46,481 bases of DNA from an uncultured Candidatus Saccharibacteria bacterium (GTDB lineage Bacteria > Patescibacteriota > Minisyncoccia > Portnoybacterales > GCA-002795985), in NCBI GenBank assembly GCA_964474765.1, contig CAYYTW010000001.1, positions 1 to 46,481 on the forward strand, given 5' to 3'. Position 1 is the stretch's first letter. Each line of letters starts with the position of its first letter. This document shows positions 3,103-44,496 of this stretch, in pieces. Made by a program: the position numbers and the translations under genes. The notes below the pieces were generated by a model that saw only the letters and a program-made list of their open reading frames with translations, searched no databases and had not been told where the DNA came from.

Positions 3103-3600
3103 TTAACGATAATAAATGATTAAAAAAATTGCGATCAGGCCGACGATAAGTTGAGTAGAAATACCCCAGAGAAGCGGGGTGTTTTTGTTATTTTTTGGGT
3201 GAACAAAGCGATGGAAACGCGCCAGCTTTTCTAAAAGCGGTGTTTTTGTCACCCAGTAAAGGGTTAATAAGCCGTCTGGCAAGGCGGCCGATAGGGCGCC
3301 GACTAAAGCGTATTGTTTGGCGGGCGAGAACCAAACTAATGAGATGACGATTAACATCCCGAGCAGAAAATCGGTGGCTATTTTGCCGAGGACAAGAAAC
3401 GCTTCTTTGCCTCCGAATATGTTTAAGACGCCTTTTCTTTCTTTCAAGCGATCTCTGATGAGTTGAATTGTGTATTCATAATGCGGAATGGCGTCCAGCA
3501 GAAAATGCGAGGCGAAGGCGATAATGAAAACCAGCCAGTATTGGCGGGGAATGATTAGCCCGATTAAGGCGCCGAGTAAAATATGGGGGATGAGAATCAT
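3103..3600 (-). CDS. membrane protein, possibly membrane-bound metal-dependent hydrolase-like (DUF457/YdjM-like)
   Basis: Hydrophobic protein with His-rich segments (IPHILLG, ASHFLLDAIPHYEY). I prefer the ATG at 3600 (MILIPHIL) because the 3651 ORF-track start overlaps the rsmI start. Confidence 0.55.
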   Translation of the reverse strand: MILIPHILLGALIGLIIPRQYWLVFIIAFASHFLLDAIPHYEYTIQLIRDRLKERKGVLNIFGGKEAFLVLGKIATDFLLGMLIVISLVWFSPAKQYALVGALSAALPDGLLTLYWVTKTPLLEKLARFHRFVHPKNNKNTPLLWGISTQLIVGLIAIFLIIYYR

Positions 3601-4344: not shown

Positions 4345-5853
4345 ATGAATAACGTGTTTATGAAGAATAAATTCTATATCACTACTCCCATCTATTACGT
4401 CAACGATAAGCCGCACATCGGCCATGCCTATACGACCGTTTTGGCCGATGTTCTGGCGCGTTATCATCGCTTAATGGGCGAAGAGGTTTTTTTCTCGGTT
4501 GGGACCGATGAGCATGGAGCGAAGATTGAGGCGGCGGCGGAGCAAGCCAATAAAAGTCCGCGGGAGTTTTGCGATGAAAACGCCGAGGCGTTTAAAGAAG
4601 CGTGGCGAAGTCTGAACATTTCGTATGACAATTTTATCAGAACCACCAACCCGAAACACGAGAAAGCCGTCTCAAATGTCCTGGATTATTTATACAAGAA
4701 GGATTTCATCTACGAAGGAGTTTATAAGGGACTTTATTGCCGGGGATGCGAGCAGTATAAGACGGACGACGATTTGGTTGGCGGTCGGTGTCCGGACCAT
4801 CAGATTGAGCCGGAAGTTATGGAAGAGGACAGCTATTTTTTCCGGTTGTCTAAGTTCGGGGCGGAGTTGGGGCGAAGCATCGCGGACGATAAGTTTAAAG
4901 TCGAGCCAGCGGAAAGAAAAAACGAAGTTTTGAATTTCATCAGAAATGGACTACAGGATATTTCCATCTCGCGCAAAAAAGTTAAATGGGGGGTGCCCCT
5001 GCCTTTTTCCGCCGAAGGCGGATCCGCCTCTGGCGGAGACAAAAAATTCACGACCTATGTATGGATAGATGCCTTTTTGAACTATCTGACTGGTCTAGGA
5101 TGGGATGGGAAAAAAAATTCAAAATGGAACAAGTTCGGCGCAAACGCCAGCAAAATTCAAAATTCGAAATTAAGCTTTTGGCCCCCCGATGTTCAACTAA
5201 TGAGCAAGGATATTTTGCGGGTTCACGCGACAATCTGGCCGGCTTTGCTGTTGGCTCTCAAGATTCCTTTGCCAAAAAAATTATATATTCATGGATTTTT
5301 TACTATTGATAGTCAGAAGATGAGCAAGTCGGTGGGTAATGTCATCTGGCCAGAACAGTTGGTTGAAAAGTTCGGCGTTGATGGCGCGAGGTATCTTTTA
5401 ATGTCTTCGCTGGCGCATGGTCACGATGGCGATGTTTCGTGGGAAAAAATGGCGGAGAAATATAATACAAATTTAGCCAACGGCTTGGGTAATTTAGTCA
5501 GCCGGGTAATGAATTTAGCCAAGGGTTTTAACATCGCGGTTCGAGACGGGAGCCTGAAAATAAAAAGCGAGAAAGCAAGGAAGCTTCTCGATGAAATTAA
5601 ACTGAAAGAAGCGCTGGACGAAATCTGGAAAGAGGTTGATTGGGCCAATAAATATGTGGAGGAAACAAGGTTGTGGGAGTTGGTTAAGGCGAATAAAAAA
5701 GAGGCGAGAAAAGTTCTGGAAGAATTGCTGGCGGCAATCATCAGCGTGGCGGAGAGCCTGAAGCCGTTTATGCCGGCAACCGCGGAAAAGATTATTAAAA
5801 TTTTAGAGTCGGGCGAGATGAAAAAGGGAGAGATTTTGTTTCCGAGAATCTAA
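4345..5853 (+). CDS. metG: methionine--tRNA ligase (short form, no C-terminal tRNA-binding domain)
   Basis: Class I motifs HIGH (KPHIGHAYT) and KMSKS (QKMSKSVGN), plus a CxxC...CP knuckle. An alternative start at 4360 (MKNKFYITTPIYY) is plausible. Confidence 0.92.
   Translation: MNNVFMKNKFYITTPIYYVNDKPHIGHAYTTVLADVLARYHRLMGEEVFFSVGTDEHGAKIEAAAEQANKSPREFCDENAEAFKEAWRSLNISYDNFIRTTNPKHEKAVSNVLDYLYKKDFIYEGVYKGLYCRGCEQYKTDDDLVGGRCPDHQIEPEVMEEDSYFFRLSKFGAELGRSIADDKFKVEPAERKNEVLNFIRNGLQDISISRKKVKWGVPLPFSAEGGSASGGDKKFTTYVWIDAFLNYLTGLGWDGKKNSKWNKFGANASKIQNSKLSFWPPDVQLMSKDILRVHATIWPALLLALKIPLPKKLYIHGFFTIDSQKMSKSVGNVIWPEQLVEKFGVDGARYLLMSSLAHGHDGDVSWEKMAEKYNTNLANGLGNLVSRVMNLAKGFNIAVRDGSLKIKSEKARKLLDEIKLKEALDEIWKEVDWANKYVEETRLWELVKANKKEARKVLEELLAAIISVAESLKPFMPATAEKIIKILESGEMKKGEILFPRI
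5007..5038. repeat. GGATCC-centred double-hairpin repeat, in-frame in metG
   Basis: ttccgccgaaggcggatccgcctctggcggag encodes SAEGGSASGG. Near-identical copies lie at 30674-30705 (topA) and 33842-33874 (pth). Confidence 0.85.
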
Positions 5854-5863
5854 AAAATCTATT

Positions 5864-5960
5864 TGTTCCGCGTGGTTCAGCGTGCTGTTCCGCGTAGTTC
5901 TGCGATAAAAACGTCTTAATCGCGGAATCACGCAGAACTTTACGCGGAACTACGCAGAAA
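5864..5960. repeat. CCGCG-rich imperfect palindrome upstream of tatD
   Basis: gttccgcgtagttctgcg (5887-5904) is inverted at cgcagaactttacgcggaac (5931-5950). Related gcggaaccacgcggaac units recur inside tatD at 6329-6392. Confidence 0.7.
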
Positions 5961-5968
5961 ATAAGGAC

Positions 5969-6895
5969 GTGTTATTGATTGATACCCATGCGCATGTAAA
6001 TTTTAACGCTTATCGCGATGATAGCGACGACGTTATTAAGAGGGCGTTGAAAAATGGCATTTGGATGATTAATGTCGGATCGCAATATTCTACCAGCCGT
6101 CGGGCAGTGGAATTCGCGAAGCGATATCCCGAAGGTGTTTACGCGGCTGTCGGCGTCCACCCGGTTCATCTGAAAGAACAAGTGGTCAGCGAAGAGTTTG
6201 ACCCTCTGGAGGAGTTTGAATTTAAGACTAAGCCGGAAGTTTTTGATTATGGAAAGTATAAAGAATTAGCCAGTCAGCCAAAGGTGGTTGCTATCGGCGA
6301 GGTTGGTTTGGATTATTTTCATTTGCAAACCGCGGAACCACGCGGAACCGACCCTTCGACAAGCTCAGGGCAAGCGCGGAACCACGCGGAAACGATTGAG
6401 GAGCAGAAAAAGAAACAGCGGGATAATTTTATTAAGCATTTGAAGTTAGCCAAAGAATTAGACAAGCCAGTGATAATCCATTGCCGCGAGGCGCATAACG
6501 ATGTTTTGGAGATATTGAATGATTTTTATAATAACGCCCCCCACCCCCCTCTTAATTTAAGAGGGGGCGAGGAGGAGTTACGCGGAGTGGTCCATTCGTT
6601 TTCTGGCAGGTGGAGTCAGGCAGAAGAATATTTCAAATTAGGTTTTCATATCAGTTTTAATGGATTGATAACTTTTGCTCGGGATTATGATAAAGTGATA
6701 AAAAACGCGCCTCTAGGCCGTTTGATGCTTGAAACTGATTGTCCATATTTAACGCCGGTTCCACATCGCGGCAAAAGAAACGAGCCGAGTTATGTTAAGT
6801 ATGTGGCGGAGAAGATTGCGGAAATAAAAGGAGTGAGTTTTGAAGAGGTAGCGGAGGCGACGACCAAGAACGCCTATGAGTTGTTCGGGATTTAA
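5969..6895 (+). CDS. tatD: TatD family metal-dependent hydrolase/DNase
   Basis: N-terminal IDTHAH, plus GEVGLDY, IIHCREA, VHSFSG and LETDCPYL, the conserved TatD metal-binding blocks. GTG start. Confidence 0.88.
   Translation: MLLIDTHAHVNFNAYRDDSDDVIKRALKNGIWMINVGSQYSTSRRAVEFAKRYPEGVYAAVGVHPVHLKEQVVSEEFDPLEEFEFKTKPEVFDYGKYKELASQPKVVAIGEVGLDYFHLQTAEPRGTDPSTSSGQARNHAETIEEQKKKQRDNFIKHLKLAKELDKPVIIHCREAHNDVLEILNDFYNNAPHPPLNLRGGEEELRGVVHSFSGRWSQAEEYFKLGFHISFNGLITFARDYDKVIKNAPLGRLMLETDCPYLTPVPHRGKRNEPSYVKYVAEKIAEIKGVSFEEVAEATTKNAYELFGI
6329..6392. repeat. in-frame repeat insertion in tatD (encodes AEPRGTDPSTSSGQARNHAE)
   Basis: Direct gcggaaccacgcggaa units flank ccttcgacaagctcagggcaag. The segment sits between TatD blocks GLDYFH and KKQRDNF. 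Confidence 0.7.
6546..6566. repeat. perfect 21-nt palindrome inside tatD coding sequence
   Basis: cccctcttaa-t-ttaagagggg encodes PPLNLRGG. Related cccc...gggg palindromes occur at 14826-14864 and 32340-32500. Confidence 0.75.
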
Positions 6896-14784: not shown

Positions 14785-14893
14785 AAGGAGTAATTGGTAG
14801 TATATGAATAAAATAATCCCACTTCAATCCCCCCTTTATATGATGGAAGGAAGCAAGGAGGGGTTAAAAAGTAATGTGTTCGCGATTTTTTTT

Positions 14894-17632
14894 ATGAAAG
14901 AATATAATCCACAGAAAATAGAAAAAAAATGGCAACAAAGATGGGAGAAAAGCGTTTTGTATGGGGCCAAAGATTTTATCAAAAAGCCGAAAAAATATAT
15001 TTTGGTTGAGTTTCCTTATCCGTCCGGCAGCGGTTTGCATGTTGGTCACGCCAGAAGCTATTCGGCTCTGGATGCGATAGCTAGAAAAAAGAGGATGGAG
15101 GGATATAATGTTTTGTTCCCGTTCGGTTGGGATGCTTTTGGTCTGCCGACGGAAAATTACGCGATTAAAACGGGCATTCATCCGCGCCAGGCAACCGACC
15201 GAAACATTAAAACATACAAGCGGCAGATTAAGTCGCTGGGTTTGTCTGTTGACTGGAGCCGTGAAATCGATACGACCGACCCGAAATATTACAAATGGAC
15301 GCAATGGATATTTTTGAAATTTTTTGAAAAAGGCCTGGCTTATCAGGCGGAGATGCCGATTAACTGGTGTCCGTCCTGCAAAATCGGTTTGGCCAACGAA
15401 GAGGTTGTCGATGGCAAATGCGAGCGTTGCGGCGCAGCGACCAAGAAACGGCAAATCAAACAGTGGCTTTTAAAAATTACCGCCTATGCCGATAAGCTGT
15501 TAAAAGGATTGGAAGAGGTTGATTATCCGGAAAAAATTAAGGCCCAACAGATTAATTGGATTGGAAAGAGCGAGGGAACAACCGCAAAATTTGAAATTGT
15601 AATTTCAAATTTTGCGGAAAATCCGAAATCCGAAATCCGAAATCCGAAACAAACTCAAAATTCAAATAACAAAGATTTAAAACAATGTATAGAGATTTTT
15701 ACTACGAGAGTTGATACTATTTTCGGTGTTACCGCTTTGGTTCTGGCGCCGGAACGTCCAATAATTAAGGATTTAGAATCACGAATTAAGAATTACGAAG
15801 AGGTCGAAAAATATATAAAAGAAGCAGCGAAAAAACCAGAGATAGAGAGAACAAGCGAAACAAAAGAACGGACGGGCGTTGAATTGAAGGGGATTTTTGC
15901 GATTAATCCGGTTAATAATGAAAAAGTGCCGGTTTGGATTGCTGATTATGTCTTGGCGCATTACGGCGGCGGCGCGGTGATGGTGGTCCCGGCGCATGAC
16001 AAACGCGATTGGGATTTTGCGAAAAAGTATAATATTCCGATTAAAGAGGTTATTTCCGGTGGTAGTGTCGAAAAAGAGGTATATCCCGATTATGGAAAAT
16101 TAGTCAACTCCGGCCAATTCAACGGAATGACGTCGCAGGAAGCAATTGAAGAAATTTCAAGATGGTTGGAAGAAGGGGGGTTTGGCAAAAAGAAAATAGA
16201 ATATAAGCTTCGCGACTGGATTTTTTCGAGACAGCATTATTGGGGAGAACCTATACCGCTAATTTTTTGCGAGAGCTGCAAGAAATTAGCGGAAAATTCT
16301 AAACTCGAAATCCGCTCTCGCTCGCGAGGAACTTGTTCTAATTCTAAACAAATCCAAAATCCAAAATCCAAAATCCAATTTAGCGACGGCGAATTATTGA
16401 ATCCTGGGTGGATAGCTATGCCAGAGAATAAATTGCCCGTTGAATTGCCATATGTAAAAAAGTACCAGCCGACCGATACCGGCGAATCGCCGCTGGCAGC
16501 GATCAAAAATTGGGTCAATGTTAAATGCCCGAAGTGCAAGGGGTCGGCGAAACGGGAAACGGACACAATGCCTAATTGGGCCGGCTCGTCTTGGTATTAC
16601 CTCGCGTATCTTATGCGAGGAAATTCGAAATCCGAAGCACGAAATCCGAAACAAATTCAAAATAACAAATTCAAAATTAAAAAATATGTTTGGGATAAAA
16701 AGAAAATTAATTATTGGATGCCAGTAGACTTATATAATGGCGGAATGGAACACACGACCTTGCATTTGCTTTATTCTCGTTTCTGGCATAGATTTTTATA
16801 CGACTTAAAATTAGTGCCGACCCCCGAGCCTTATGCGCGGCGGCGTTCGCACGGCATGGTCTTGGCCGAAGACGGGCAAAAAATGAGCAAAAGCCGGGGC
16901 AATGTTGTTAATCCTGACGAGATAATTAAAATTTACGGGGCTGACGCCTTGAGAATCTACGAAATGTTCATGGGGCCTTTCGATCGGGCGATTAGCTGGA
17001 ATCAAAAAGGGTTAGTTGGCTGCTATCGGTTTTTATCAAGAGTTTGGGAAATGGTAAAGCAGGTAAGCAAAGTTAGCTCCGGCGTGATTCAGGTAGTGGG
17101 CCCCAAAATTGCTGGGGGACAGGAAATCGTGCCGGAACAAACAAGGAGAGGGTTGCTTCGAGAGTTGAATAAGACGATTAAGAAGGTTAGCGAAGATATG
17201 GAAGAGATGAAATTTAACACGGCCATTGCCTGCTTGATGGAATCGTCGAATGAAATAGGTAATTTATTGGGCGAAATGGAGAAATGGGGCTATTTCATAC
17301 CACAGGATATTTTTGAAACATATCTAAAATTACTTTCTCCCTTCGCGCCGCATTTGGCAGAGGAGCTTTGGAGCAAATTGGGGCATAAAAAGTCAATCTT
17401 TTACGAAAAATGGCTGAAATACGATCCAAAATTAATTCGAGAGGAAACTTTTGAGCTAGTTGTCCAGATTAATGGTAAAGTCCGCGACGCGATTTCCGCG
17501 ACGGTTGATATTTCGGAAGAGGACGCGAAAGAGTTGGCGTTGAATAGTGAAAAAGTTCAGAAGTGGCTTGAGAACAAGCCGGTTAGAAAAGTTATTTTCG
17601 TAAAAAATAGATTGATTAACCTAATCGTTTAA
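14894..17632 (+). CDS. leuS: leucine--tRNA ligase
   Basis: HIGH-type GLHVGHARSY, KMSKS (QKMSKSRGN), a CP1 editing domain (TTRVDTIFG) and zinc CxxC pairs. MKEYNPQKIEKKWQQRW at 14894 matches the canonical LeuRS N-terminus. The 14804 ORF-track start is probably an upstream extension. Confidence 0.93.
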   Translation: MKEYNPQKIEKKWQQRWEKSVLYGAKDFIKKPKKYILVEFPYPSGSGLHVGHARSYSALDAIARKKRMEGYNVLFPFGWDAFGLPTENYAIKTGIHPRQATDRNIKTYKRQIKSLGLSVDWSREIDTTDPKYYKWTQWIFLKFFEKGLAYQAEMPINWCPSCKIGLANEEVVDGKCERCGAATKKRQIKQWLLKITAYADKLLKGLEEVDYPEKIKAQQINWIGKSEGTTAKFEIVISNFAENPKSEIRNPKQTQNSNNKDLKQCIEIFTTRVDTIFGVTALVLAPERPIIKDLESRIKNYEEVEKYIKEAAKKPEIERTSETKERTGVELKGIFAINPVNNEKVPVWIADYVLAHYGGGAVMVVPAHDKRDWDFAKKYNIPIKEVISGGSVEKEVYPDYGKLVNSGQFNGMTSQEAIEEISRWLEEGGFGKKKIEYKLRDWIFSRQHYWGEPIPLIFCESCKKLAENSKLEIRSRSRGTCSNSKQIQNPKSKIQFSDGELLNPGWIAMPENKLPVELPYVKKYQPTDTGESPLAAIKNWVNVKCPKCKGSAKRETDTMPNWAGSSWYYLAYLMRGNSKSEARNPKQIQNNKFKIKKYVWDKKKINYWMPVDLYNGGMEHTTLHLLYSRFWHRFLYDLKLVPTPEPYARRRSHGMVLAEDGQKMSKSRGNVVNPDEIIKIYGADALRIYEMFMGPFDRAISWNQKGLVGCYRFLSRVWEMVKQVSKVSSGVIQVVGPKIAGGQEIVPEQTRRGLLRELNKTIKKVSEDMEEMKFNTAIACLMESSNEIGNLLGEMEKWGYFIPQDIFETYLKLLSPFAPHLAEELWSKLGHKKSIFYEKWLKYDPKLIREETFELVVQINGKVRDAISATVDISEEDAKELALNSEKVQKWLENKPVRKVIFVKNRLINLIV
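15617..15670. repeat. CGAAATC pentamer-rich repeat (family A), in-frame in leuS
   Basis: gaaaatccgaaatccgaaatccgaaatccgaaacaaactcaaaattcaaat encodes ENPKSEIRNPKQTQNSN. Confidence 0.8.
16291..16380. repeat. family A-related repeat, in-frame in leuS
   Basis: Encodes ENSKLEIRSRSRGTCSNSKQIQNPKSKIQ. It contains a 33-nt segment (16306-16338) identical to 30722-30754 in topA. Confidence 0.85.
16621..16680. repeat. family A repeat, in-frame in leuS
   Basis: aaattcgaaatccgaagcacgaaatccgaaacaaattcaaaat encodes NSKSEARNPKQIQNNKFKI. The same string occurs in intergenic copies at 34109 and 38578. Confidence 0.85.
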
Positions 17633-21452: not shown

Positions 21453-21568
21453 TGGTGAAGCCCGAAGAATCTCTCAACTTGTTTGAGAAAAGGAGCTTAA
21501 TTTCTTGCATTCGCAAGAGATTCTTCACTTCGTTCAGAATGACAAAATAGGGTTTTGTAACCATCTCA
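21443..21568. repeat. palindromic repeat plus solo MITE end overlapping the dxr stop codon
   Basis: gtcattctga (21443-21452) is inverted at tcagaatgac (21534-21543). This is followed by gttttgtaaccatctca (21552-21568), the right terminal repeat of the 130-bp MITE. Confidence 0.7.
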
Positions 21569-28490: not shown

Positions 28491-28717
28491 TAGTCAGAAA
28501 TCAATTTTTGAGAAGTGCCAAATTTGCTTTCTATCCACGAAGCACCAAACTCAAAGCAGTAAATTCCTACTGGTGGCCACCAGAAAGGCGGTAAATAAAT
28601 CACAATAACCAAAACACAAAATCCAAAACGGTTTTGAAAATTTTAATTTTGCATTTTGTTCTCGTATACGAGGAACTTGTCCGATTTATTTAGGATTTGT
28701 AATTTTGGATTTGTAAT

Positions 28718-31063
28718 TTATTTCTTGTTGCACTCTTTGTTTGAGCACTTGGTTTTTCCTTTTGGCATCTCGACTAAGAGCGAATTGCACTTCGGGCATT
28801 TTTGGCCGGTCGGTTTATTCCAAAGCGCGAAGTCGCAATTCGGATAGCGTGAGCAGCCGTAAAAATTTCTTCCTTTTTTCGAGCGTAGTTCAACGATGTC
28901 TCCTTCTACGCATTTTGGGCAGACTATTCCCAGCTTCTTCTCGATTTTTTTTATATTTTTGCAATTTGGATAATTGGAACACCCCAAGAAAGCGCCGAAG
29001 CGTCCGCGTTTTACCGTCATCGGCGCTCCGCACTTTTCGCAGCCAACGCCGGCATGCGCTCCATCTATCTTCTTCTCTTCTTCGGTTTTTTCAGTATATT
29101 TACATTTGGGAAAATTGGCGCAAGCAATGAATTTCCCGAATCGTCCGAATTTCATGATAAGATCACCGCCGCATTCCGGGCATTGACGGTCAAGCTTTTC
29201 CAAAATGTCTTCTTTTTTTACTTTTTCCATTTTTTCTAAAAGATTTTTATGAAACGGTCCATAAAATTCACTAATTACCGGCGCCCACTCCCGTTTTCCC
29301 TCCGCTATTTCATCAAGGTTTTCTTCTACGGTCGCGGTAAATTTGACGTCTACGATTCGAGGAAAATGTTCTACTAAAAGATCGTTGACAAGCGCGCCGA
29401 TTTCCAGGGGGAAAAGCCGGCGACTCTCATCCTTATCGATGTATTGCCGCTCAATAATGGTTGAAATTATCGGCGCGTAGGTTGATGGCCGGCCGATGCC
29501 GTTTTCTTCAAGCGTTTTTACCAGCGATGCTTCGTTGTAACGCGGCGGGGCGGCGGTGAATTTTTGTTCCGTCTCAATGCGGGAGAGGGTTAAGGGTTCC
29601 TTTTCTTTCATCTCCGGGATCAATCCTGTTTCTCCAAGGTTTCTTTTTTCGTAGGCTTTCAGGTAGCCATCAAATTTTACAACTGACCCGCCGGCCCTAA
29701 GAAGATAGGAATTTTTCGTCTTTTCGTTTTTTGCCTCAATCTCTATTTGCAGGGAGTCAAAAATAGCCGGCGTCATTTGCGAAGCGATCACGCGGCCCCA
29801 GATGAGTTTGTAAAGTTTATGCTGGTTGGGATCAAGAGTCGCTTTGAGTTCGTCTGGGATTTTTTCCGGATGAGTCGGGCGAATGGCTTCATGCGCCTCT
29901 TGGGCGCCTTTTGATTTATTTTTGAAGAAGCGGGGAGAGGGCAGAGCGTATTCTGCTCCGAATTCTTTTTGAATTGTTTTTTGCGCGGAGGCAAGTGATT
30001 CTTGCGAAAGATTAAACGAATCGGTTCGCATGTAGGTGATATGACCCTCTTCGTAGAGCTTTTGAGCCACGACCATGGTTTGCTTAGCGGAGAACCCCAG
30101 TCGTCCGATAGCGGCCTGTTGTAGCGTAGAGGTAGTGAGGGGCGGAGGAGGGAATCCTTGAGTTTCTTTGCGGTCAACTGACTTGATGGAATAAGACGAT
30201 TCTTCCAGGTCGGCTTTTATGTTTTCCGATTCTTTCGTGGACGAGATGGAGGTTTTCTTGTTTCGGTATACTCCAGCGAAAACTTTTGTCTCGGTGATTT
30301 TTTCAATTTTTTCCCCGTTTTTCTCCGCGAGGCTTGCTTCAAATTCTTCGGTTGCGCCCTCTTTTCGGAGTCGGGCTTTAATATTCCAAAATTCTTCTTC
30401 GCGGAATTTTTCGATTTCGCGTTCACGTTCGACAATGAAGCGTAGAGCAATAGATTGCACGCGTCCGGCCGAAAGGCCGCGTCGCATTTTTTTCCAGAGA
30501 AACGGCGAGAGTTCATAACCGACGAGGCGGTCTAAAATTCTTCGCGCTTGCTGGGCATCGACCAAATTAATATCGATCTCGCGCGGATTTTTAAGCGCGT
30601 TTTCTATAGCGCTTTTGGTGATTTCATGGAAAACAATGCGGTGATAAGGTTTTGAATTTTGAATTTTGAATTTTTCCGCCGAAGGCGGATCCGCCCCTGG
30701 CGGAGAATTTTTTTCGGATTTGAACAAGTTCCTCGCGAGCGAGAGCGGATTTCGGATTTCGGATTTCCCAAGCTGTAAAGCTTGGGCGAGGTGCCAGGAA
30801 ATAGCTTCGCCTTCACGGTCTTCGTCGGTGGCCAGAATAACCTCTTTTGATTTGGCGGATAATTTTTTAAGTTCGGAAACTTTGGTTCTCGCCTTGGCAG
30901 GAATAATGTATCTGGGTTCAAAATTGTGTTCAATATCAATCCCCATTTCTTTTTTTGGCAGATCGCGAACATGCCCATAGCTCGATTTAACCAAAAAATT
31001 GTCGCTTAGAAAGCGCTGGATGGTTTTGGCTTTGGTTGGCGATTCGACGATGACGAGTTTCAT
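28718..31063 (-). CDS. topA: DNA topoisomerase I
   Basis: Toprim N-terminus MKLVIVESPTKAKTI, the active-site region and four C-terminal CxxC...CxxC zinc-ribbon repeats. The 31084 ORF-track start arises from a duplicated leader repeat. Confidence 0.93.
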   Translation of the reverse strand: MKLVIVESPTKAKTIQRFLSDNFLVKSSYGHVRDLPKKEMGIDIEHNFEPRYIIPAKARTKVSELKKLSAKSKEVILATDEDREGEAISWHLAQALQLGKSEIRNPLSLARNLFKSEKNSPPGADPPSAEKFKIQNSKPYHRIVFHEITKSAIENALKNPREIDINLVDAQQARRILDRLVGYELSPFLWKKMRRGLSAGRVQSIALRFIVEREREIEKFREEEFWNIKARLRKEGATEEFEASLAEKNGEKIEKITETKVFAGVYRNKKTSISSTKESENIKADLEESSYSIKSVDRKETQGFPPPPLTTSTLQQAAIGRLGFSAKQTMVVAQKLYEEGHITYMRTDSFNLSQESLASAQKTIQKEFGAEYALPSPRFFKNKSKGAQEAHEAIRPTHPEKIPDELKATLDPNQHKLYKLIWGRVIASQMTPAIFDSLQIEIEAKNEKTKNSYLLRAGGSVVKFDGYLKAYEKRNLGETGLIPEMKEKEPLTLSRIETEQKFTAAPPRYNEASLVKTLEENGIGRPSTYAPIISTIIERQYIDKDESRRLFPLEIGALVNDLLVEHFPRIVDVKFTATVEENLDEIAEGKREWAPVISEFYGPFHKNLLEKMEKVKKEDILEKLDRQCPECGGDLIMKFGRFGKFIACANFPKCKYTEKTEEEKKIDGAHAGVGCEKCGAPMTVKRGRFGAFLGCSNYPNCKNIKKIEKKLGIVCPKCVEGDIVELRSKKGRNFYGCSRYPNCDFALWNKPTGQKCPKCNSLLVEMPKGKTKCSNKECNKK
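30651..30768. repeat. composite repeat insertion in-frame in topA (GGATCC hairpin + family A)
   Basis: Encodes GKSEIRNPLSLARNLFKSEKNSPPGADPPSAEKFKIQNSK between conserved TopA blocks. It contains 30674-30705 (GGATCC element, opposite orientation to the metG and pth copies) and 30722-30754 (33 nt identical to leuS). Confidence 0.85.
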
Positions 31064-31137
31064 GAAACATGTAACATGAAACATGTAACAGATGCAAAAA
31101 AATTGTTACATGTTATATGTTGTGTGTTACGTGCTCT

Positions 31138-32238
31138 TTATCTCGCTATCACATATTGCATCCCGCCTAAGTTTTTCGCTTTTCCCTTCATTTCCATTAA
31201 AGTCAGGGTCGAGCTGACCGTTGCTGTGTCAAGTTTAGTTTCTATCACGATTTTGTCAATATGGATTGGTTCATGAGAGAGGAGTTTTAAAATCAGCGCT
31301 TCTTCGTCGGTGTCGGGAATTATTTCTTTGGCTTCGATTTGTTCGGTGAGGGAAACAAGGTTTAATTCCTCGAGAACGTCTTGAACATTGCAAACCAATT
31401 TCGCCCCCATTTTTATTAGATTATTTGGGCCAACGGAGCTTGGAGAATAAATTGGCCCGGGAATGGCAAAAACTTGGCGGTTCTGGCCGAGAGCGTGATT
31501 AGCGGTTAAAAATGTCCCGCTTTTTTCAGCGGCCTCGATGACTAATACGCCTAAAGATAAACCGGAAATAATGCGGTTGCGGGCGGGGAAATGATAGGGC
31601 ATCGCTTCGGTTCCGATTGGGTATTCGGAAATGACAGCTCCGTTTTCGGCAATCATATCGGCAAGTTTGCGGTTGCTTGATGGATAAATGCTGTTTCTGT
31701 CCAAGCCGGAGCCGATAACAGCGATCGTTCTGCCTCTTGTTTCAAAGCAAGCTTTGTGGGCCAGAGTGTCGATACCTAACGCTAAACCGCTGACAATGGT
31801 TAGACCGGCGGATGATAAATCGCGCGCGAGGTTGCCGACAGCCTGGATGCCGTAGGAAGTTGGTTTTCTGGTGCCGACAACCGCTAGACTAAAATCGTCT
31901 TGCGGTTTGAAGGCGCCCCTGATATATAAAACCGCCGGCGGGTCGTAAATTTCTTTGAGAAGTTTGGGATATGTTTTGTCTCCGGCGGTTATTATCGTCA
32001 TCTTTTCTTTGGCTAATTTTTCTAATTCTTTGTCTGGATTGATATTTCTTCGTTCGGCGCAAATTTTTTGCGCTATTTTTTCGTCGAGCCCGGCGTTTCG
32101 GAAATCGTTTTCGTCTGCCCGCCAGGCATTTTCTAAGGAATCAAAATAAGCCAGAAGCATTTTGAATCTTATGGCTCCGATTTCCGGGAAAAGATTGAAA
32201 GCATTGTAATATTTTAATTCTTTTGTCGAGGTAGACAT
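31138..32238 (-). CDS. dprA: DNA-processing protein DprA (Smf)
   Basis: Rossmann-like core with GLALGIDTLAHKA and GTFLTANHALGQNRQVFAIPG, plus a C-terminal winged-helix-like tail. The dprA-topA gene order is widely conserved. Confidence 0.9.
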   Translation of the reverse strand: MSTSTKELKYYNAFNLFPEIGAIRFKMLLAYFDSLENAWRADENDFRNAGLDEKIAQKICAERRNINPDKELEKLAKEKMTIITAGDKTYPKLLKEIYDPPAVLYIRGAFKPQDDFSLAVVGTRKPTSYGIQAVGNLARDLSSAGLTIVSGLALGIDTLAHKACFETRGRTIAVIGSGLDRNSIYPSSNRKLADMIAENGAVISEYPIGTEAMPYHFPARNRIISGLSLGVLVIEAAEKSGTFLTANHALGQNRQVFAIPGPIYSPSSVGPNNLIKMGAKLVCNVQDVLEELNLVSLTEQIEAKEIIPDTDEEALILKLLSHEPIHIDKIVIETKLDTATVSSTLTLMEMKGKAKNLGGMQYVIAR

Positions 32239-32527
32239 TTCTTATCTTAAATGAGTGGATAATGATAAATTGCGGGATAAGGGGGAATCAGGCATTGATT
32301 CCGTTAGAGAGAGTTTGGTGAATAATGCCTAAAACTATTATTCTCCCTCCCCCCTTTAGACTTTGTCCGTCCGTAGCTTCACGCGAAGGAGGATGAGGGG
32401 AGGATTAAAGAGGGGTGTTAAAATGAATAAATTATATTTTTTATTTGAAACACCGCCTCCCCCAACTCCTCCTCATCATCCTGCGCCAAGACTTTGGAGG
32501 ACAGACCAGAGGAGGGAAGGATAAAAT

Positions 32528-32657
32528 GAGATGGTTACAAAACTATCTAATCTGTCATCCCGAATTCATTTCGGGATCTAAGTTTAGTGATTATTAGAAC
32601 GAAGTAGATTCTGAAACAAGTTCAGAATAACAATACGACGAGTTTTGTAACCATCTC
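32528..32657. mobile_element. 130-bp MITE copy A (TIR gagatggttacaaaac)
   Basis: 16-bp perfect terminal inverted repeats. It differs from copy B (36840-36969) at one position and is flanked by aat/aat. Confidence 0.8.
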
Positions 32658-32694
32658 AATATACAATTTTCACCAAACACTCTCTCTCACGGGA

Positions 32695-32723
32695 TTGACA
32701 AAAATTAGAATATAGTATATAAT
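32695..32723 (+). promoter_or_regulatory. perfect-consensus sigma70 promoter TTGACA-N17-TATAAT
   Basis: ttgaca 32695-32700, exactly 17 nt, tataat 32718-32723. Confidence 0.65.
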
Positions 32724-32739
32724 AACGGAAAATTACTAG

Positions 32740-33009
32740 CCCCCACACTTAATTGACACTGAAGCAGGGCTTTTGCATGTTGATTTATATTTTATCTATT
32801 AACACACAAGGCACAGCAGCAATTCTTTGTTTCGCACAACAAATGTGCCAATTAAGTGTGGGGGTAAAATGCGCCTCGCTATCCTATCTGTGAGTGGCGA
32901 AAACTTAAGAACAACCCTCCTATTCTTGGTTAGTAACCGGTGAGATCGGGGGTTGCCCGATTCTTCGGGATTTGCCCCTGAAGCTCGCAGATAGGATAGC
33001 GAGGCGCAT
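32740..33009 (+). other. two consecutive long perfect-stem hairpins downstream of the consensus promoter (candidate structured RNA/leader or two palindromic MITEs)
   Basis: Stem 1 is 32740-32755 with 32849-32864 (16 bp perfect). Stem 2 is 32869-32890 with 32988-33009 (22 bp perfect), with inner helices such as atcggg/cccgat. Confidence 0.5.
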
Positions 33010-33042
33010 CAGTTCCTCCAAAACTAAATAAGAGGTGAAGTC

Positions 33043-33327
33043 GTGGATAAGGGATGGCTATGTAATGGATTGCTGTTGGCGCTATGCGTTATTTTCTTCT
33101 TAATTTCTTTTACCGGCGTTCGTGTGTCTCGGCACATCCATGACGACGGCACAATAATTTCAACAGTAAACCCATTGTGTCTCATTGGGACGCGCTCGCG
33201 AAACGCGAAATTGGTTGAGGAGGCGATCCGAGTGATGTCGGCAGGGCTGGGCGTCCAGGTTGTCGAAATTTTTAGTGACGGCTGGACGGTCAGGGGCCGC
33301 GTTGCCCAGAACCAAGATAGGAGTTAA
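33043..33327 (+). CDS. hypothetical protein (94 aa, N-terminal TM helix)
   Basis: GTG start with RBS aagaggtga 6 nt upstream. It is followed by a terminator. No family recognised. Confidence 0.45.
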   Translation: MDKGWLCNGLLLALCVIFFLISFTGVRVSRHIHDDGTIISTVNPLCLIGTRSRNAKLVEEAIRVMSAGLGVQVVEIFSDGWTVRGRVAQNQDRS

Positions 33328-33348
33328 TTCGGCCGGAGAACGGCTTTT

Positions 33349-33375
33349 GCGGGCGTCACGCGCCCGCCTTTTTTG
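33349..33375 (+). terminator. intrinsic terminator
   Basis: gcgggcg-tcacg-cgcccgc followed by cttttttg. Confidence 0.7.
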
Positions 33376-33550
33376 TTTGTGTGATTTGTAATCGAATTGT
33401 TGTTTCTTGCATCATCTTGAATTTATTTCAGAATCTTTTTAATAATCGATAACCTATGAGATCCCGAAACAAGTTCGGGATGACATGGATGTATAGTTAA
33501 GAAGCTTTTAATTAAATCTTTTTAATAGGAGTATTATGTTTTTTGGGTAA

Positions 33551-34108
33551 TTAAAATAATTCCAATTTTTTAATCGCTTCTGGAATTACTTTTTTAATAA
33601 CTTCTTTTTCTTCTCTGTTGAAGTTTTTTAAAACAAAGGCGTCAGCCTTGATGTCGGTTTCGGGGTGGGGTGGCCTGATGCCGATACGCATGCGCCAAAA
33701 ATCTTTTGTGTCAAGCGCATCAATGATTGATTGCGCTCCTTTATGTCCGGCCGAGCCGCGGCCAAACTCGAATTTAAAGATGCCGAGCGGCAAATCAAAA
33801 TCATCATGCACTATCGTGTAACTTCCAACTTCTCCGCCAAAGGCGGATCCACCCTCGGCGGACAACTTCCAACTTCCAACTATTGATTTAACTGCTTCCC
33901 CCGAACTATTCATATATGTCTGCGGCTTGGCGATGATAATGCCGCGTTCAGTATTTTCAGATATTTCCGACTCTAACTTTCTATTTAATTTCCACTTAGA
34001 AAATCCGCCGATATTTTTTTGAATATAATCAACAGTTAAAAACCCCACATTGTGTCGGGTTTTTTCATATTTTTTTCCCGGATTGCCGAGGCCGACAACT
34101 ATCTTCAT
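33551..34108 (-). CDS. pth: peptidyl-tRNA hydrolase
   Basis: MKIVVGLGNPG...YEKTRHNVGF...MNSSG...HDDFDLPLG...GHKG blocks. The 34150 ORF-track start lies inside a family A repeat. Confidence 0.9.
   Translation of the reverse strand: MKIVVGLGNPGKKYEKTRHNVGFLTVDYIQKNIGGFSKWKLNRKLESEISENTERGIIIAKPQTYMNSSGEAVKSIVGSWKLSAEGGSAFGGEVGSYTIVHDDFDLPLGIFKFEFGRGSAGHKGAQSIIDALDTKDFWRMRIGIRPPHPETDIKADAFVLKNFNREEKEVIKKVIPEAIKKLELF
33842..33874. repeat. GGATCC-centred hairpin repeat in-frame in pth
   Basis: Encodes SAEGGSAFGGE and is flanked by ggaagttggaagtt units. It has the same coding orientation and frame as the metG copy. Confidence 0.8.
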
Positions 34109-34240
34109 AGAAATCCGAAGCACGAAATCCGAAATCCGAAACAATATCAAATGCCCAAAATCATAATGCCCAAACCGTTTTGAATATTTGAAAATTTAAT
34201 TTATAATTTATTTCGAATTTCGAAATTTTGATTTCGAGTT
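34109..34240. repeat. family A palindromic repeat, intergenic copy (pth-lepB)
   Basis: Left end gaaatccgaagcacgaaatccgaaatccgaaaca. Right end atttcgaatttcgaaattttgatttcgag in inverted orientation. Confidence 0.7.
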
Positions 34241-34322
34241 TACGAACTAATAATATCGCGTCTTGCAAAAATGGGCAAATACTATAGAATGAAATTAACA
34301 AATAATTCATAAAGGAGAAATA

Positions 34323-34975: not shown

Positions 34976-36301
34976 ATGTTTCAACCGGCAAAGCCAAAAA
35001 ATAGGCCTGAAAATAGGCCCGGAAATCAAAAAACATTTCAAGCTCCAAAGGGGACTTATGATATTCTGCCCGGCGAACAAGTTTACTGGGAGAGAATTTA
35101 TAAAATCGCGAGAGAGGTTTTTCTTTTTTACGGTTTCGGGCGGATTGACACTCCTATCATTGAAGAGGCGGACCTTTACGTTCGCGCCACCGGCGAATCG
35201 ACGGATGTCGTCGAAAAGCAAATATATCTTTTTAAAAGCAAAGGCGGAGATTTTTTGGCTTTGCGTCCAGAGTTTACCCCGGGCGTTATTCGCGCCTATT
35301 TAGAGGATGGGTTGTCTGCCTTGGTTCATCCAGTTAAGCTTTATAGTTTTGGCCCCCTTTTTCGTTATGAAAATCCGCAGGCTGGACGCTATCGACAGTT
35401 CCACCAGATTAACCTTGAGGTTATTGGCAGCAAGGCGCCAGCCAACGACGCCGAAGTCATCCAGCTGTTTTTCGTGATTTTCCGCGAGTTGGGATTGAAA
35501 GCTATTAATCTTTATATTAATTCTATTGGGTGTTCGGAATGCCGGCCGCATTACAGAAAACTATTGGTTGGATATTATAAAAATAAGATTGATCGTCTCT
35601 GTCTCGATTGCAAAAAGCGTTTTAGGCAAAATCCATTGAGATTGTTGGACTGCAAAGACGAGCGGTGCGTTCAGTTTATGGTTGGCGCGCCTCAAATGAT
35701 CGATCACCTTTGCGAAGAATGCCATACTCATTTAAAGGGCGTGTTGGAGTTTCTGGACGACTTGGAAATTCCTTATATTTTAAATCAGTCTTTGGTGCGG
35801 GGCTTGGATTATTATACTAAAACTGTTTTCGAGTTTTGGCCCGATGGTGAACAGGCGCGTCAGGGCGCCTTGGGGGGTGGCGGGCGCTACGACTATCTGA
35901 TAAAGTTTTTAGGCGGCAAGGATACTCCGGCCGTGGGAGGCGGGATAGGCGTGGAAAGATTAATCGCGCAATTGAAATCCCAGGCCGTTAAATTCCATTC
36001 GCTTATCAGTCCGCGGGTTTTTTTGGTTCAATTAGGAGAGTTGGCTAGAAGAAGGGGTTTTAAAATTTTCGAAGAACTGCGGAAGGCAAATATTGCCGCC
36101 GCCGCCGCGTTTAGCAAAGACAGCATTAAAACCCAGTTGAAGTTGGCGGATCGAGCCGAAATTAAGATAGCGCTGATTTTCGGTCAGCAAGAGGTTTTGG
36201 ACGGAACGGTTATTATCCGCGATATGGCTAGCGGAGCCCAGGAAACCATAAAACAGGATAAATTGATTTTGGTGTTGAAGAAAAGGTTGGCGAAAAAATA
36301 A
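34976..36301 (+). CDS. hisS: histidine--tRNA ligase
   Basis: KGTYDILPGE, class II motif regions (FRYENPQAGRYRQFHQ, GGGGRYD) and a C-terminal anticodon-binding domain. Confidence 0.92.
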   Translation: MFQPAKPKNRPENRPGNQKTFQAPKGTYDILPGEQVYWERIYKIAREVFLFYGFGRIDTPIIEEADLYVRATGESTDVVEKQIYLFKSKGGDFLALRPEFTPGVIRAYLEDGLSALVHPVKLYSFGPLFRYENPQAGRYRQFHQINLEVIGSKAPANDAEVIQLFFVIFRELGLKAINLYINSIGCSECRPHYRKLLVGYYKNKIDRLCLDCKKRFRQNPLRLLDCKDERCVQFMVGAPQMIDHLCEECHTHLKGVLEFLDDLEIPYILNQSLVRGLDYYTKTVFEFWPDGEQARQGALGGGGRYDYLIKFLGGKDTPAVGGGIGVERLIAQLKSQAVKFHSLISPRVFLVQLGELARRRGFKIFEELRKANIAAAAAFSKDSIKTQLKLADRAEIKIALIFGQQEVLDGTVIIRDMASGAQETIKQDKLILVLKKRLAKK

Positions 36302-36738: not shown

Positions 36739-36839
36739 ATTACTTAGATTCGAAATCCGAATTTCGAAATACGAAACAAATTCAAATATCTAATGTTCAA
36801 ATTCCTGAAACGGTTTCGGTCATTCTGATTTTGAACATT

Positions 36840-36969
36840 GAGATGGTTACAAAACTATCTAATCTGTCATCCCGAATTCATTTCGGGATCTAAGTTTAGT
36901 GATTATTAGAACGAAGTAGATTCTGAAACAAGTTCAGAATGACAATACGACGAGTTTTGTAACCATCTC
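36840..36969. mobile_element. 130-bp MITE copy B, nested inside a family A repeat
   Basis: 129/130 identical to 32528-32657 and flanked by att/att. Family A halves lie at 36745-36838 and 36971-37010. Confidence 0.8.
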
Positions 36970-37035
36970 ATTCTACATTGTTTCGGATTTCGGATTTCGT
37001 GCTTCTGATTTTTGCATAGAGAGGGGGTATGTTTT

Positions 37036-38157: not shown

Positions 38158-38577
38158 ATGATTGAAATAAGAAATCTCACTCGAAGTATAATCGACCAAT
38201 GTTTTTTTCAAAAAGTCGGCAAGATTGTCTTGAAAAAATTGGGGCAGTCGGAAAATTTTGAAGTAAGCCTGGTTTTTGTGGGCGATGCGAGGATGCGGGC
38301 GCTGAATAAAAAATATCGGGGCATAGATAAAACGACCGATGTGCTGTCGTTTTTTTATGGCGGAGAGGGGCCGGGAGATATGTTGGGTGAGATTGTTATT
38401 TCAATTCCGCAAGCGAAAAAGCAAGCGAAAAAGCAGAGTTATCCACTAAAGCGCGAATTGCTTGCGCTTTTTGCGCATGGTATACTTCATTTATCGGGGT
38501 ATGAAGATGAGACGAAAAGGGGATACGAAAAGATGATGAGGAAACAGGAAGAACTTTTAGAATCTTTAAGTTTTTAA
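38158..38577 (+). CDS. ybeY: rRNA maturation RNase YbeY
   Basis: HGILHLSGYEDE (H-G-x-L-H-L-x-G-Y motif) and DVLSF upstream. An alternative TTG start lies at 38143. Confidence 0.87.
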   Translation: MIEIRNLTRSIIDQCFFQKVGKIVLKKLGQSENFEVSLVFVGDARMRALNKKYRGIDKTTDVLSFFYGGEGPGDMLGEIVISIPQAKKQAKKQSYPLKRELLALFAHGILHLSGYEDETKRGYEKMMRKQEELLESLSF

Positions 38578-38728
38578 ATCCGAAATCCGAAGCACGAAAT
38601 CCGAAACTCTCTTACGCCAAGGCTTCAGAGGGCAAGCAATACTAATTAAGTTAGAATTTGCCTGCCCACCGAAGCTCGTTAGGGCGAATGTTGGGTTTCG
38701 TATTCCGGATTTTGATATTCGAATTTTC
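38578..38728. repeat. family A palindromic repeat, intergenic copy (ybeY-ftsA)
   Basis: Left end aaatccgaaatccgaagcacgaaatccgaaac. Right end gtttcgtattccggattttgatattcgaatttt, inverted. Confidence 0.7.
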
Positions 38729-40043: not shown

Positions 40044-40268
40044 ATGAAATTTAGACAAACATTATTCTGGGACACAAACCCTAAGAATATAGACGTTAAA
40101 AGAAATGCTCAATATATCATTGAACGAATTTTGGAGTTTGGGGATATAAACGAAGTAAGTTGGATGTTAAGGCATTACCCGAAAAGCGTTATTAAAAAAG
40201 TAATGCACCTTCCACGAGTTCAATTAAACGATAAATCAAAAGCATTATGGTCCCTGTTGATCAAGTAA
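40044..40268 (+). CDS. small protein upstream of AbiEii toxin (putative cognate antitoxin-like partner)
   Basis: 74-aa ORF overlapping the next gene by 22 nt. The LFWDTNPKNIDVKRNAQYIIERILEFGD pattern resembles small partners and C-terminal parts of AbiEi-type proteins as I recall them. Confidence 0.5.
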   Translation: MKFRQTLFWDTNPKNIDVKRNAQYIIERILEFGDINEVSWMLRHYPKSVIKKVMHLPRVQLNDKSKALWSLLIK

Positions 40269-40927
40269 AACAAGGTTTTGACACTCTTTTTTTTGATGCT
40301 TTGCCGAAAGCTGTTGTTCTGGCGTTAAAAAAATGTTCAGAAATGGATTTTTTTTCACAAGGTAATTGGTATTTGGCCGGGGGCACCGCGCTCGCTTTGC
40401 AGTCAGGGCATCGCAGGTCTTACGACCTGGATTTTTTTACAAAAAATAAAATTTTTGACGAAAAAAAAGTTGAAAAAATTTTGAATGACGGAGGAGAATG
40501 GATTACTAATGCTATAAGCAAGGGAACAGTTTACGGCATATTTTCCGAAACAAAAATGAGTTTTATATCTTACCCATACTTCAAACCGGCCGAGAAAATG
40601 CGTAACTTTGGAACAGTTTCTTTGCTAACGCCCCCCGATATTGCGGTAATGAAAATTATCGCTATTTCTCAAAGAGGTAAAAAGCGAGACTTTTTTGATT
40701 TATATTGGATTTGTCGAAATGTAGAATCGTTGCGTAATAGTATCTTGAAGGTAGACAAACAATATTCTGTGCGTCAAAATCTTATCCATATTTTGAAAAG
40801 TTTGGTGTATTTCAAAGACGCGGAAAGCGACCCGGAGCCGGAAATATATTTTGACGCCAACTGGAAAAAAGTAAAAAGTTTTTTCACGAAAGAAATTCCA
40901 ATAATTGCGGAGAAAATAATCAAATGA
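40247..40927 (+). CDS. nucleotidyltransferase AbiEii/AbiGii toxin family protein
   Basis: GGTALALQSGHRRSYDLDFF matches the nucleotidyltransferase motif of AbiEii-like (DUF1814) type IV toxins. 226 aa. Confidence 0.78.
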   Translation: MVPVDQVKQGFDTLFFDALPKAVVLALKKCSEMDFFSQGNWYLAGGTALALQSGHRRSYDLDFFTKNKIFDEKKVEKILNDGGEWITNAISKGTVYGIFSETKMSFISYPYFKPAEKMRNFGTVSLLTPPDIAVMKIIAISQRGKKRDFFDLYWICRNVESLRNSILKVDKQYSVRQNLIHILKSLVYFKDAESDPEPEIYFDANWKKVKSFFTKEIPIIAEKIIK

Positions 40928-44009: not shown

Positions 44010-44082
44010 TGATTTCCCATCTTGATAATTTGGTAATTTGATGATTTCGCTGATTTTGAAAAAAAGATTACACTGATAATAT

Positions 44083-44460: not shown

Positions 44461-44496
44461 TATCAGTTTTTATTTATCAGTGTTATCGGTTTTTCT

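Follow-up and report, generated by a model that had tools for sequence, protein, structure and literature searches.

The stretch of DNA analysed here (the window) is contig CAYYTW010000001.1 of assembly GCA_964474765.1, 46,481 nt read on its forward strand, from an uncultured Candidatus Saccharibacteria bacterium that GTDB places among the Portnoybacterales, within the candidate phyla radiation (CPR; Patescibacteria). It carries the genes for leucyl-tRNA synthetase (LeuRS; leuS) and DNA topoisomerase I (TopA; topA), each of which contains the same 33-nt segment, CGAAATCCGCTCTCGCTCGCGAGGAACTTGTTC, read in two different frames. Most of this segment is a short repeat that we designated module A, and both copies lie in larger inserts that also contain tandem heptanucleotide (heptamer) arrays and, in topA, a second repeat designated module B. 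The features of the two genes are as follows, with bit scores from a covariance model (CM) described below; ORF denotes an open reading frame.

14894–17632, + strand: leuS, leucyl-tRNA synthetase, 912 aa from M31 of ORF 14804–17632; intact, with three repeat-derived inserts
15619–15671, + strand: LeuRS insert 1, (AAATCCG)x4.4 and related heptamers, read NPKSEIRNPKQTQNS; absent from the PDB homologue
16283–16408, + strand: LeuRS insert 2, ORF residues 494–535, following the first CxxC of the Zn module; array, module A, array
16294–16314, + strand: array 5' of module A, AAATTCT AAACTCG AAATCCG
16306–16338, + strand: 33-nt segment in leuS, comprising the CGAAATCC array part and module A; read EIRSRSRGTCS
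16314–16338, + strand: module A core in leuS, GCTCTCGCTCGCGAGGAACTTGTTC; net insertion of 24 nt; CM match 51.9 bits
16350–16378, + strand: array 3' of module A, (AAATCCA)x4.1, read KSKIQNP...
16621–16687, + strand: LeuRS insert 3, composite heptamer unit GAAATCCGAAGCACGAAATCCGAAAC and an AAATTCA array
28718–31063, − strand: topA, DNA topoisomerase I (type IA), 781 aa from M8 of ORF 28718–31084; intact
30641–30764, − strand: composite insert of TopA, 37 codons (net +111 nt); not present in the closest orthologues
30722–30754, − strand: 33-nt segment in topA, with the module A core at 30722–30746; read RNPLSLARNLF; CM match 47.9 bits
30675–30704, − strand: module B in topA, 30 nt, read PPGADPPSAE

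Neither gene is a pseudogene, a possibility raised in the preliminary description of this DNA, since both are full-length ORFs that retain all the expected Pfam domains (tRNA-synt_1, editing domain and Anticodon_1 in LeuRS; Toprim, Topoisom_bac and three Zn ribbons in TopA) and align end to end with solved structures, LeuRS with PDB 1h3n of T. thermophilus. The start assigned to leuS is the same Met at which the gene call of the contig begins, and the nearest named relatives of the protein are from Candidatus Portnoybacteria and other Patescibacteria.

The preliminary description had also reported that 16306–16338 (+) and 30722–30754 (−) are identical, that the segment lies in the sense orientation in both genes, and that the two readings are offset by one base; our results agree with it on each point. 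An exact string search located the 33-mer exactly twice in the window, at these positions and within ORFs 14804–17632 (+) and 28718–31084 (−). No further match was found in the window at up to three mismatches, and there were 0 chance matches in 100 dinucleotide shuffles. When the frames were recomputed, (16306 − 14894) mod 3 = 2 placed the start of the segment at codon position 3 of leuS, giving (L)EIRSRSRGTCS, and (31084 − 30754) mod 3 = 0 placed it at codon position 1 of topA, giving RNPLSLARNLF. Similarity between the two genes reaches beyond the identical part, to 63 nt at 86%. The identical part is itself composite, its first 8–9 nt, CGAAATCC(G), belonging to the heptamer array and the next 24–25 nt to module A, which has the consensus GCTCTCGCTYGCGAGGAACTTGTTC (24–25 nt). 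We infer that the leuS and topA copies, which are of an 'inverted' subtype with the module sense on the A-rich strand, arose by recent duplication within the genome, and this would explain their 33/33 identity.

Comparison with structures and orthologues shows that both copies lie within insertions. LeuRS insert 2 corresponds to 42 aa placed between residues 443 and 444 of the T. thermophilus enzyme in the PDB alignment, and its middle part is hypervariable among homologues. In leuS, module A is flanked by AAATCCG on one side and TAATTCT on the other. At the corresponding site, a LeuRS of 69% identity (P0004) carries a heptamer array that is exactly 24 nt shorter and contains no module A. In TopA, 39 residues stand in place of 2 in the solved structure, between the Toprim domain and the next strand, and the sequence in orthologues (84%, 83% and 75% identity) is ...ALKLDEKNAKRIVFHEITK, without the insert. 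At the DNA level, topA of the window has 88 + 23 = 111 extra nt relative to two relatives of about 85% nucleotide identity (L037 and L040), and the insertion site in these relatives has no heptamer array. The order within the insert is (AAATCCG)3, module A, AAATCCG..., module B and (AAAATTC)3, with module A sitting between complete heptamers: (AAATCCG)3, 24 nt, AAATCCG. An example of the predicted insert-spanning peptides is KSEIRNPLSLARNLFK.

AlphaFold2 models, run on alignments of 78–80 sequences, gave confident cores for both enzymes and low predicted local distance difference test (pLDDT) values over the inserts: 32–46 for TopA residues 100–136, and below 50 for LeuRS residues 240–262 (insert 1), 477–488 (part of insert 2) and 577–597 (insert 3). 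The inserts are thus predicted to be disordered and to lie in loops between conserved structural elements, and the enzymes that bear them keep all their domains. The modules are probably translated as tolerated, disordered surface loops.

To find how widely module A occurs, several collections were searched. A metagenome scan with its 21-nt core gave matches in one MurB gene and two, in tandem, in a histidine-kinase gene. An exact scan of GTDB representative genomes with the same core gave no match because the common variant carries T rather than C in the loop. A second scan of GTDB species representatives, with a degenerate pattern that left the loop positions free, returned 28 loci. Sixteen of these are in low-GC CPR genomes, including several Candidatus Saccharibacteria and Nealsonbacteria metagenome-assembled genomes (MAGs), and all 16 have GCTCTCGCTTGCGAGGAACTTGTTC flanked by T-rich heptamers; some CPR MAGs hold 2–5 copies. 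The other 12 matches are in high-GC genomes (Actinomycetes, Hyphomicrobiaceae and others) and were rejected as unrelated coding sequence: heptamers do not flank them, and a Watson–Crick pair between positions 8 and 11 is present in only 4 of their 10 distinct loop sequences, with no stem-type pairing. A covariance model (R1) built from the module A loci found two more copies in the window and two more in L015, a Patescibacteria MAG. The additional copies in the window are:

5121–5157, − strand: module A variant in metS, antisense to the gene, read NKFGANAS; CM match 41.9 bits, E 7e-7
28652–28688, + strand: intergenic variant GTTCTCGTATACGAGGAACTTGTCC, in the topA–relA spacer inside a heptamer-array palindrome; CM match 45.1 bits

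The metS copy lies within an insert of about 20 aa relative to PDB 2csx, has a heptamer array beside it at 5151–5173, and differs from the other copies at two stem pairs, each changed on both sides (GGCG...CGCC).

In total, 26 copies of module A were collected from low-GC CPR genomes of several classes (Saccharibacteria, Nealsonbacteria and others). Nine are intergenic, and 17 lie inside 15 Pfam-verified genes, all of them in frame. The hosts are LeuRS, TopA, MetRS, MurB (two copies), histidine kinase (two), RpoB, RpoC (two), MnmA, the M50 protease RseP, IleRS (two), TsaD, a PEP-utilising enzyme and AlaRS. Besides leuS and topA, this amounts to 15 insertions in 13 genes, at non-homologous sites, and where the same gene is a host in two genomes (murB, rpoC) the insertion sites differ. 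The module is read in five of the six possible frames:

EQVPR[EK]RE: antisense frame, 7 copies
NKFLASES-type: antisense frame, 4 copies
TSSSQARA: antisense frame, 4 copies
LSLARNLF: sense frame, 1 copy (topA)
RSRSRGTC: sense frame, 1 copy (leuS)

Since such a use of frames excludes conservation at the peptide level, the target of selection or recent spread must be the nucleic acid and not the peptide. The suggestion of the preliminary description that repeat-driven insertion, rather than shared protein ancestry, accounts for the segment is supported by the insertions relative to solved structures, the empty sites in orthologues, the dispersed copies and the five frames. These observations show that modules have been inserted in frame into loops of essential enzymes repeatedly and independently, and that the sites are not the same from genome to genome. 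The essential, single-copy nature of the host enzymes argues against a phase-variable contingency locus.

The preliminary description had also called for frame usage and stop codons to be examined over all copies, and the 17 genic copies proved to be in frame and stop-free throughout. This bears on whether the inserts are translated at all. Short GC-rich hairpin inserts in essential coding sequences, here in a lineage of unusual biology, bring to mind the byps found in Magnusiomyces mitochondria and in phage T4 gene 60, and the inserts might likewise be cut out of the mRNA or skipped by the ribosome, although this likeness is one of resemblance only. Byps are untranslated, do not need to keep the frame, and often have a stop codon together with take-off and landing codons. 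The modules are always in frame and stop-free, and no take-off/landing codon pairs or boundary stop codons were seen. Preservation of frame, an open sequence and lengths that are multiples of three, in 17 of 17 genic copies, would be needless if the inserts were skipped, and we regard bypassing as very improbable.

Chance, an artefact of assembly or contamination, or convergence of low-complexity sequence would be a more trivial explanation, and the window does come from a MAG, in which repeats are able to cause chimeric joins. However, no chance matches are expected, module A is also found in frame in assemblies of independent origin (JGI, ENA and NCBI), the genes remain colinear with their orthologues to either side of the inserts, and there are variants with compensatory changes. 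An origin of this kind is hardly credible. Two contigs from different samples that encode an identical LeuRS, P0034 (L007 and L008), are 100% identical except for one indel of 111 nt, which lies in a glycosyltransferase gene, and one of 103 nt, which lies in glmS and breaks that gene in L007. Neither is repeat-associated, and they may be deletion variants or assembly errors. As these two indels, both unrelated to the repeats, are the only differences, no array-length polymorphism was found between the two contigs.

Searches for a known source or class of module A were negative. No match turned up in a scan of viral contigs or, by BLAST, in phage genomes, hence no sign of a phage origin. The only Rfam match at the gathering threshold was a tRNA, with nothing meaningful at E ≤ 10 around a typical module A copy. 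Tandem double copies occur at two loci (L002 and L028). In L015, three copies of a composite intergenic repeat of about 230 nt (2560–2860, 3210–3510 and 5800–6100) lie between co-directional genes, with a mean column identity of 81%. This repeat, which includes module A and heptamer arrays of several different kinds, could be a 'full-length' source of the module.

The sequence of module A consists of two mini-palindromes side by side, CTCGC-TT-GCGAG and GAAC-TT-GTTC. Classic mini-loops of two residues, such as CUUG/CTTG and TTTA, are closed by a pair within the loop, and by analogy with them a helix with a 2-nt apex would be plausible. At loop positions 8 and 11, which were left unconstrained in the search, 20 copies have C-G and three have T-A. 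In an alignment fitted by the covariance model, 99% of the stem cells are paired and three pairs change on both sides, which 0 of 500 shuffles matched, but the search pattern fixed most positions of the module, which inflates its apparent conservation and limits the covariation test. The fold energies of the module and of the whole inserts are no better than those of shuffles (z from +0.25 to −0.7). We do not claim a stable RNA structure; covariation is observed in a 5-bp helix only.

Modules A and B are stop-free in all six frames, and their lengths of 24 and 30 nt are multiples of three. The remark in the preliminary description that the sequence 'stays open' is overstated, being weak as evidence, and stop-codon avoidance was rejected as proof of selection: between 6.5 and 17% of shuffles or window k-mers are likewise open in six frames. 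Openness is best seen as a filter, not as design. Heptamers such as AAATTCA and AAAATCA are open on the A-rich strand only, and genic arrays are therefore almost always A-rich in the sense direction; this also largely accounts for most genic module copies being antisense.

Heptamer arrays are a feature of the window in general, with AAATCCG, AAATCCA, AAATTCA and their relatives as units. A strict search found five lag-7 segments covering 174 nt, as against 0–1 at each of the other lags from 3 to 12 and about 0 in shuffles, and 7 is the only period with a large excess. A looser scan gave 22 heptamer arrays, compared with 1.15 in shuffles. The CPR loci (183 kb) contain 63 lag-7 segments and at most 10 at any other lag, an upper estimate given that the loci were chosen for containing the module, and the high-GC controls from outside the CPR (87 kb) contain none. 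Nearly all copies of module A are flanked by such 7-nt arrays. Three units make up 21 nt, or seven codons, and pass through all three frames in turn (KSEIRNP, KSKIQNP, KFKIQNS); a difference in the phase of an array relative to its gene thus leads to the module being read in a different frame. What sets the frame is this phase, or the point of insertion, and nothing in the module itself.

The composite heptamer unit of LeuRS insert 3, GAAATCCGAAGCACGAAATCCGAAAC, has four copies in the window, at 16621–16652, 34104–34135, 36977–37004 (−) and 38576–38607. One is inside leuS (read NSKSEARNPKQ) and three are intergenic, one of the latter beginning in the stop codon of ybeY, so that the same repeat has genic and intergenic forms. 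Arrays also form long, imperfect intergenic palindromes at 28590–28720, 34100–34250 and 36746–36830, in which an A-rich array, a centre like AAAACGGTTT and a T-rich array follow one another; these may be bidirectional terminators. In pth, the units of the array differ between the window (33820–33881, (GGAAGTT)n) and L037 (4040–4080, (TCAAGTT)n), all having changed together, a pattern that indicates concerted turnover of the array.

Module B is a 30-nt, GC-rich double hairpin of the form TCCGCC-NNNN-GCGGATCCGCC-NNNN-GCGGA that occurs in metS, topA and pth. Its copies outside topA are:

5008–5037, + strand: module B in metS, a 10-codon insert (SAEGGSASGG) with no heptamer array; the gap in the PDB alignment is exactly 10 residues
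33832–33862, − strand: module B in pth, inside one unit of the (GGAAGTT)n array

In L037, which is syntenic, pth carries the (TCAAGTT)n array at this place but not the 30 nt, and there is no target-site duplication. Over a 10-kb block of synteny with L037, all coding indels of at least 6 nt are repeat or hairpin modules. A different in-frame insert of 66 nt is present in pth of L037 (4228–4304), with the hairpin GTCATTCCCGCGCAAGCGGGAATCC and the reading VIPAQAGIQ..., and represents a third class of hairpin repeat within a CPR gene. The LeuRS homologues P0018, P0087 and P0036 of other CPR bacteria have their own, different GC-rich, hairpin-like inserts, with PPYGGTPPKAVANPKSQT present twice in P0018, at two sites. 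To judge by these sequences, there may be many families of modules across the radiation.

Taken together, we favour, with a probability of about 0.6, the explanation that the 33-mer represents two copies of a very short interspersed repeat, module A, which is part of a CPR/Patescibacteria repeat system that also includes heptamer arrays and module B. DNA of intergenic composite repeats, or of other arrays, would be copied and pasted into sites that permit it, either through homology or template switching between arrays or through a trans-acting enzyme that recognises the small hairpin, and only copies that are in frame, free of stops and located in tolerant loops would outlast selection. The first of these two routes would explain the array flank shared by the leuS and topA copies and the absence of target duplications.

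Several points weigh against this explanation. The route through array homology is not general, as module B of metS is in no array and the topA site is array-free in relatives. The preliminary description had called the sequence 'mobile', a term that its distribution suggests; no mobilising enzyme or mechanism, target-site duplication or terminal repeat was found. The module is near-invariant across long-diverged CPR classes and shows compensatory changes in its stem, unlike decaying neutral insertions, which suggests very recent spread, horizontal transfer, or selection on nucleotides or structure, that is, a function. The inserts are presumed to be translated. Finally, the sampled loci were picked for containing module A, and their densities and coding fractions are not unbiased.

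Movement by a trans-acting enzyme can also be put forward as a full explanation, in which modules A and B are non-autonomous elements mobilised as single-stranded DNA by a hairpin-recognising protein, such as a REP-associated tyrosine transposase (RAYT) or an HUH enzyme of the IS200/IS605 type, with the arrays as preferred targets or by-products. The uniform sequence of the module over many genomes and classes, the hairpin with compensatory changes, the tandem double copies, the array-free insertion in metS and the array-free target site in topA all fit such a model, as do clean insertions without target-site duplication, which HUH single-strand transposition predicts. However, the window has no transposase-like gene: Pfam searches of its larger ORFs found only a reverse transcriptase of the type associated with diversity-generating retroelements (DGRs) and a PD-(D/E)XK protein, and no RAYT (IS200/IS605-like) transposase was found among the ORFs of the window. 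The module also lacks the GTAG/CGTC tag of repetitive extragenic palindromic (REP) sequences, at 24 nt with a 5-bp stem it is below any known mobilised unit, and its copies show no strand bias relative to GC skew. The lack of bias also disposed of replication-strand preference within the window as a separate proposal, as two copies are on the + strand and two on the − strand under a uniform GC skew. Enzymatic mobilisation in this form is possible, but rather unlikely.

Alternatively, module A could be a functional cis-element under nucleotide-level selection, for example an antisense terminator, a binding site for a CPR protein or an RNA-processing site. Near-invariance across CPR classes whatever the frame, and covariation at positions 8/11 together with the swapped pairs of the metS copy (with none in the high-GC chance matches), speak for a role of this kind, and so does orientation: in about 19 of 22 orientable copies, intergenic ones included, the T-rich, module-sense strand is opposite the transcribed strand. 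A U-rich tract follows the hairpins on the module-sense strand, and one module B unit is terminator-like and antisense to topA. However, the fold is no more stable than shuffles, terminator-like sites are not enriched (19, compared with 14.2 ± 3.5), the leuS and topA copies are oppositely oriented and lack a U-tract, the insert is missing from close orthologues, insertion sites are scattered and not set relative to gene ends, and the genic part of the orientation bias is largely forced by the TGA contained in the T-rich heptamers. We consider such an element distinctly doubtful. A broader proposal, that module A and probably module B are a structured nucleic-acid signal found across the CPR and selected at the DNA or RNA level inside core genes (rpoB, rpoC, aminoacyl-tRNA synthetase genes, topA), is only slightly less doubtful. 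If it were correct, the signal could serve to stop antisense transcription, as a site of binding or processing by a CPR factor, or as a handle for recombination or uptake, and the heptamer arrays could be frame-neutral 'landing pads', allowing a single nucleotide signal to be placed within any protein, in cells taken to be naturally competent and nucleotide-scavenging; we hold these extensions to be unlikely along with the proposal itself.

Heterocystous cyanobacteria have short tandemly repeated repetitive (STRR) heptanucleotide sequences inside their RNase P RNA genes. The arrays of the window, as distinct from module A, resemble them in being tandem 7-nt units found genome-wide that can lie inside functional genes, but the lineage and the units are different, and here the arrays are in protein-coding genes, are A-rich in sense and host non-tandem hairpin modules (the term STRR is mentioned in PMC2858038). 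The amino-acid tandem repeats of Borgs (PMC9879509) are also nucleotide repeats that arise rapidly in ORFs and add disordered segments, but they are local, perfect tandem duplications with units that are multiples of three, and neither a dispersed module nor a 7-nt unit. Module A shares with the RAYT-mobilised REP, BIME (bacterial interspersed mosaic element) and REPIN (REP doublet) sequences (PMC3733652) a size of 20–40 nt, many dispersed copies, tandem doublets and the lack of target-site duplication, and perhaps also an imperfect palindrome, of which helix 1 covaries while the fold energy is no better than that of shuffles; REPs, however, are extragenic with a GTAG or CGTC head, whereas 17 of the 26 copies of module A are genic, and its consensus has no such tag and a stem of about 5 bp. 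It differs from MITEs (miniature transposable elements with inverted repeats) in having no terminal inverted repeats or target-site duplication, its flanking arrays being direct and not inverted, and from DNA uptake sequences (~10–12 nt, ~1 per kb) in its length of 25 nt and its four copies in 46 kb.

The closest parallel is with the Rickettsia palindromic elements (RPEs), which PMC10969869 describes as selfish hairpin repeats inserted in frame in housekeeping genes; according to the account of Ogata et al. (2000) given there, they are about 100–150 bp long and each family encodes one conserved peptide in a single frame. As far as that account goes, RPEs and module A are alike in being short, hairpin-forming repeats of a reduced-genome lineage, inserted in frame in unrelated housekeeping genes at sites compatible with the fold. 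Compared with the elements described there, module A belongs to another lineage, has no sequence similarity to them, is five times shorter (24–25 nt, with a stem of ~5 bp), is read in five frames, lies in heptamer arrays and is common to several CPR classes nearly unchanged. Our literature searches, which were incomplete in coverage, found no description of heptamer arrays or in-gene modules in CPR/Patescibacteria, and the module system is apparently an undescribed analogue of RPEs in these bacteria.

The CPR makes up a large share of bacterial diversity, and its minimal genomes are expected to be under pressure to lose junk DNA. If the explanation we favour is correct, the modules are a second, independent and more extreme case, after RPEs, of selfish or structured DNA inside essential coding genes, and the heptamer arrays, with a unit length not divisible by three, a hallmark of these genomes that has so far gone unreported. 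It would explain much of the length variation and many of the 'low-complexity' segments (KSEIRNP, KIQNSKF, EQVPRKREQ, PPSADPP...) of CPR housekeeping proteins, and would serve as a warning that such segments are not homologous characters for alignments or phylogenies. It would also provide a testable system for the addition of new disordered loops to ancient enzymes.

Several other repeats and elements are present in the window. A 144-nt repeat occurs in two copies at 97% identity (32527–32670 and 36839–36982), each with two TGTCAT-CCCGAA...TTCGGG-AT-type hairpins, and hairpins of this family also stand singly at 33412–33485, 41848–41935 and 21517–21551; this looks like a MITE-like intergenic family, separate from modules A and B. 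Between pth and dprA, a stretch of about 1.3 kb (32222–33560) is absent from L037, where the two genes adjoin, and contains hairpin repeats of the TGTCAT type, a strong terminator-like hairpin (33349–33367) and a 94-aa ORF without a Pfam match. A 12-nt tandem repeat, AAAATAGGCCCG x2.4 (34998–35026), lengthens the 5' end of hisS by 24 nt relative to L037, and a 21-nt tandem repeat (x3.3, 97% matches) is found at 41285–41353, inside an ORF (41133–41522) that has no Pfam match. A gene for an AbiEii-type nucleotidyltransferase toxin of a type IV toxin–antitoxin system (40247–40927) lies in a stretch of GC 0.37 just upstream of a diversity-generating retroelement. The latter occupies 41985–46467, with its variable region (43888–44005) at the 3' end of ORF 41985–44009, the template repeat at 45030–45147, the reverse transcriptase gene (RVT_1) at 45202–46467 on the − strand, and the PD-(D/E)XK gene in between; every mismatch in the variable region falls at a template adenine.

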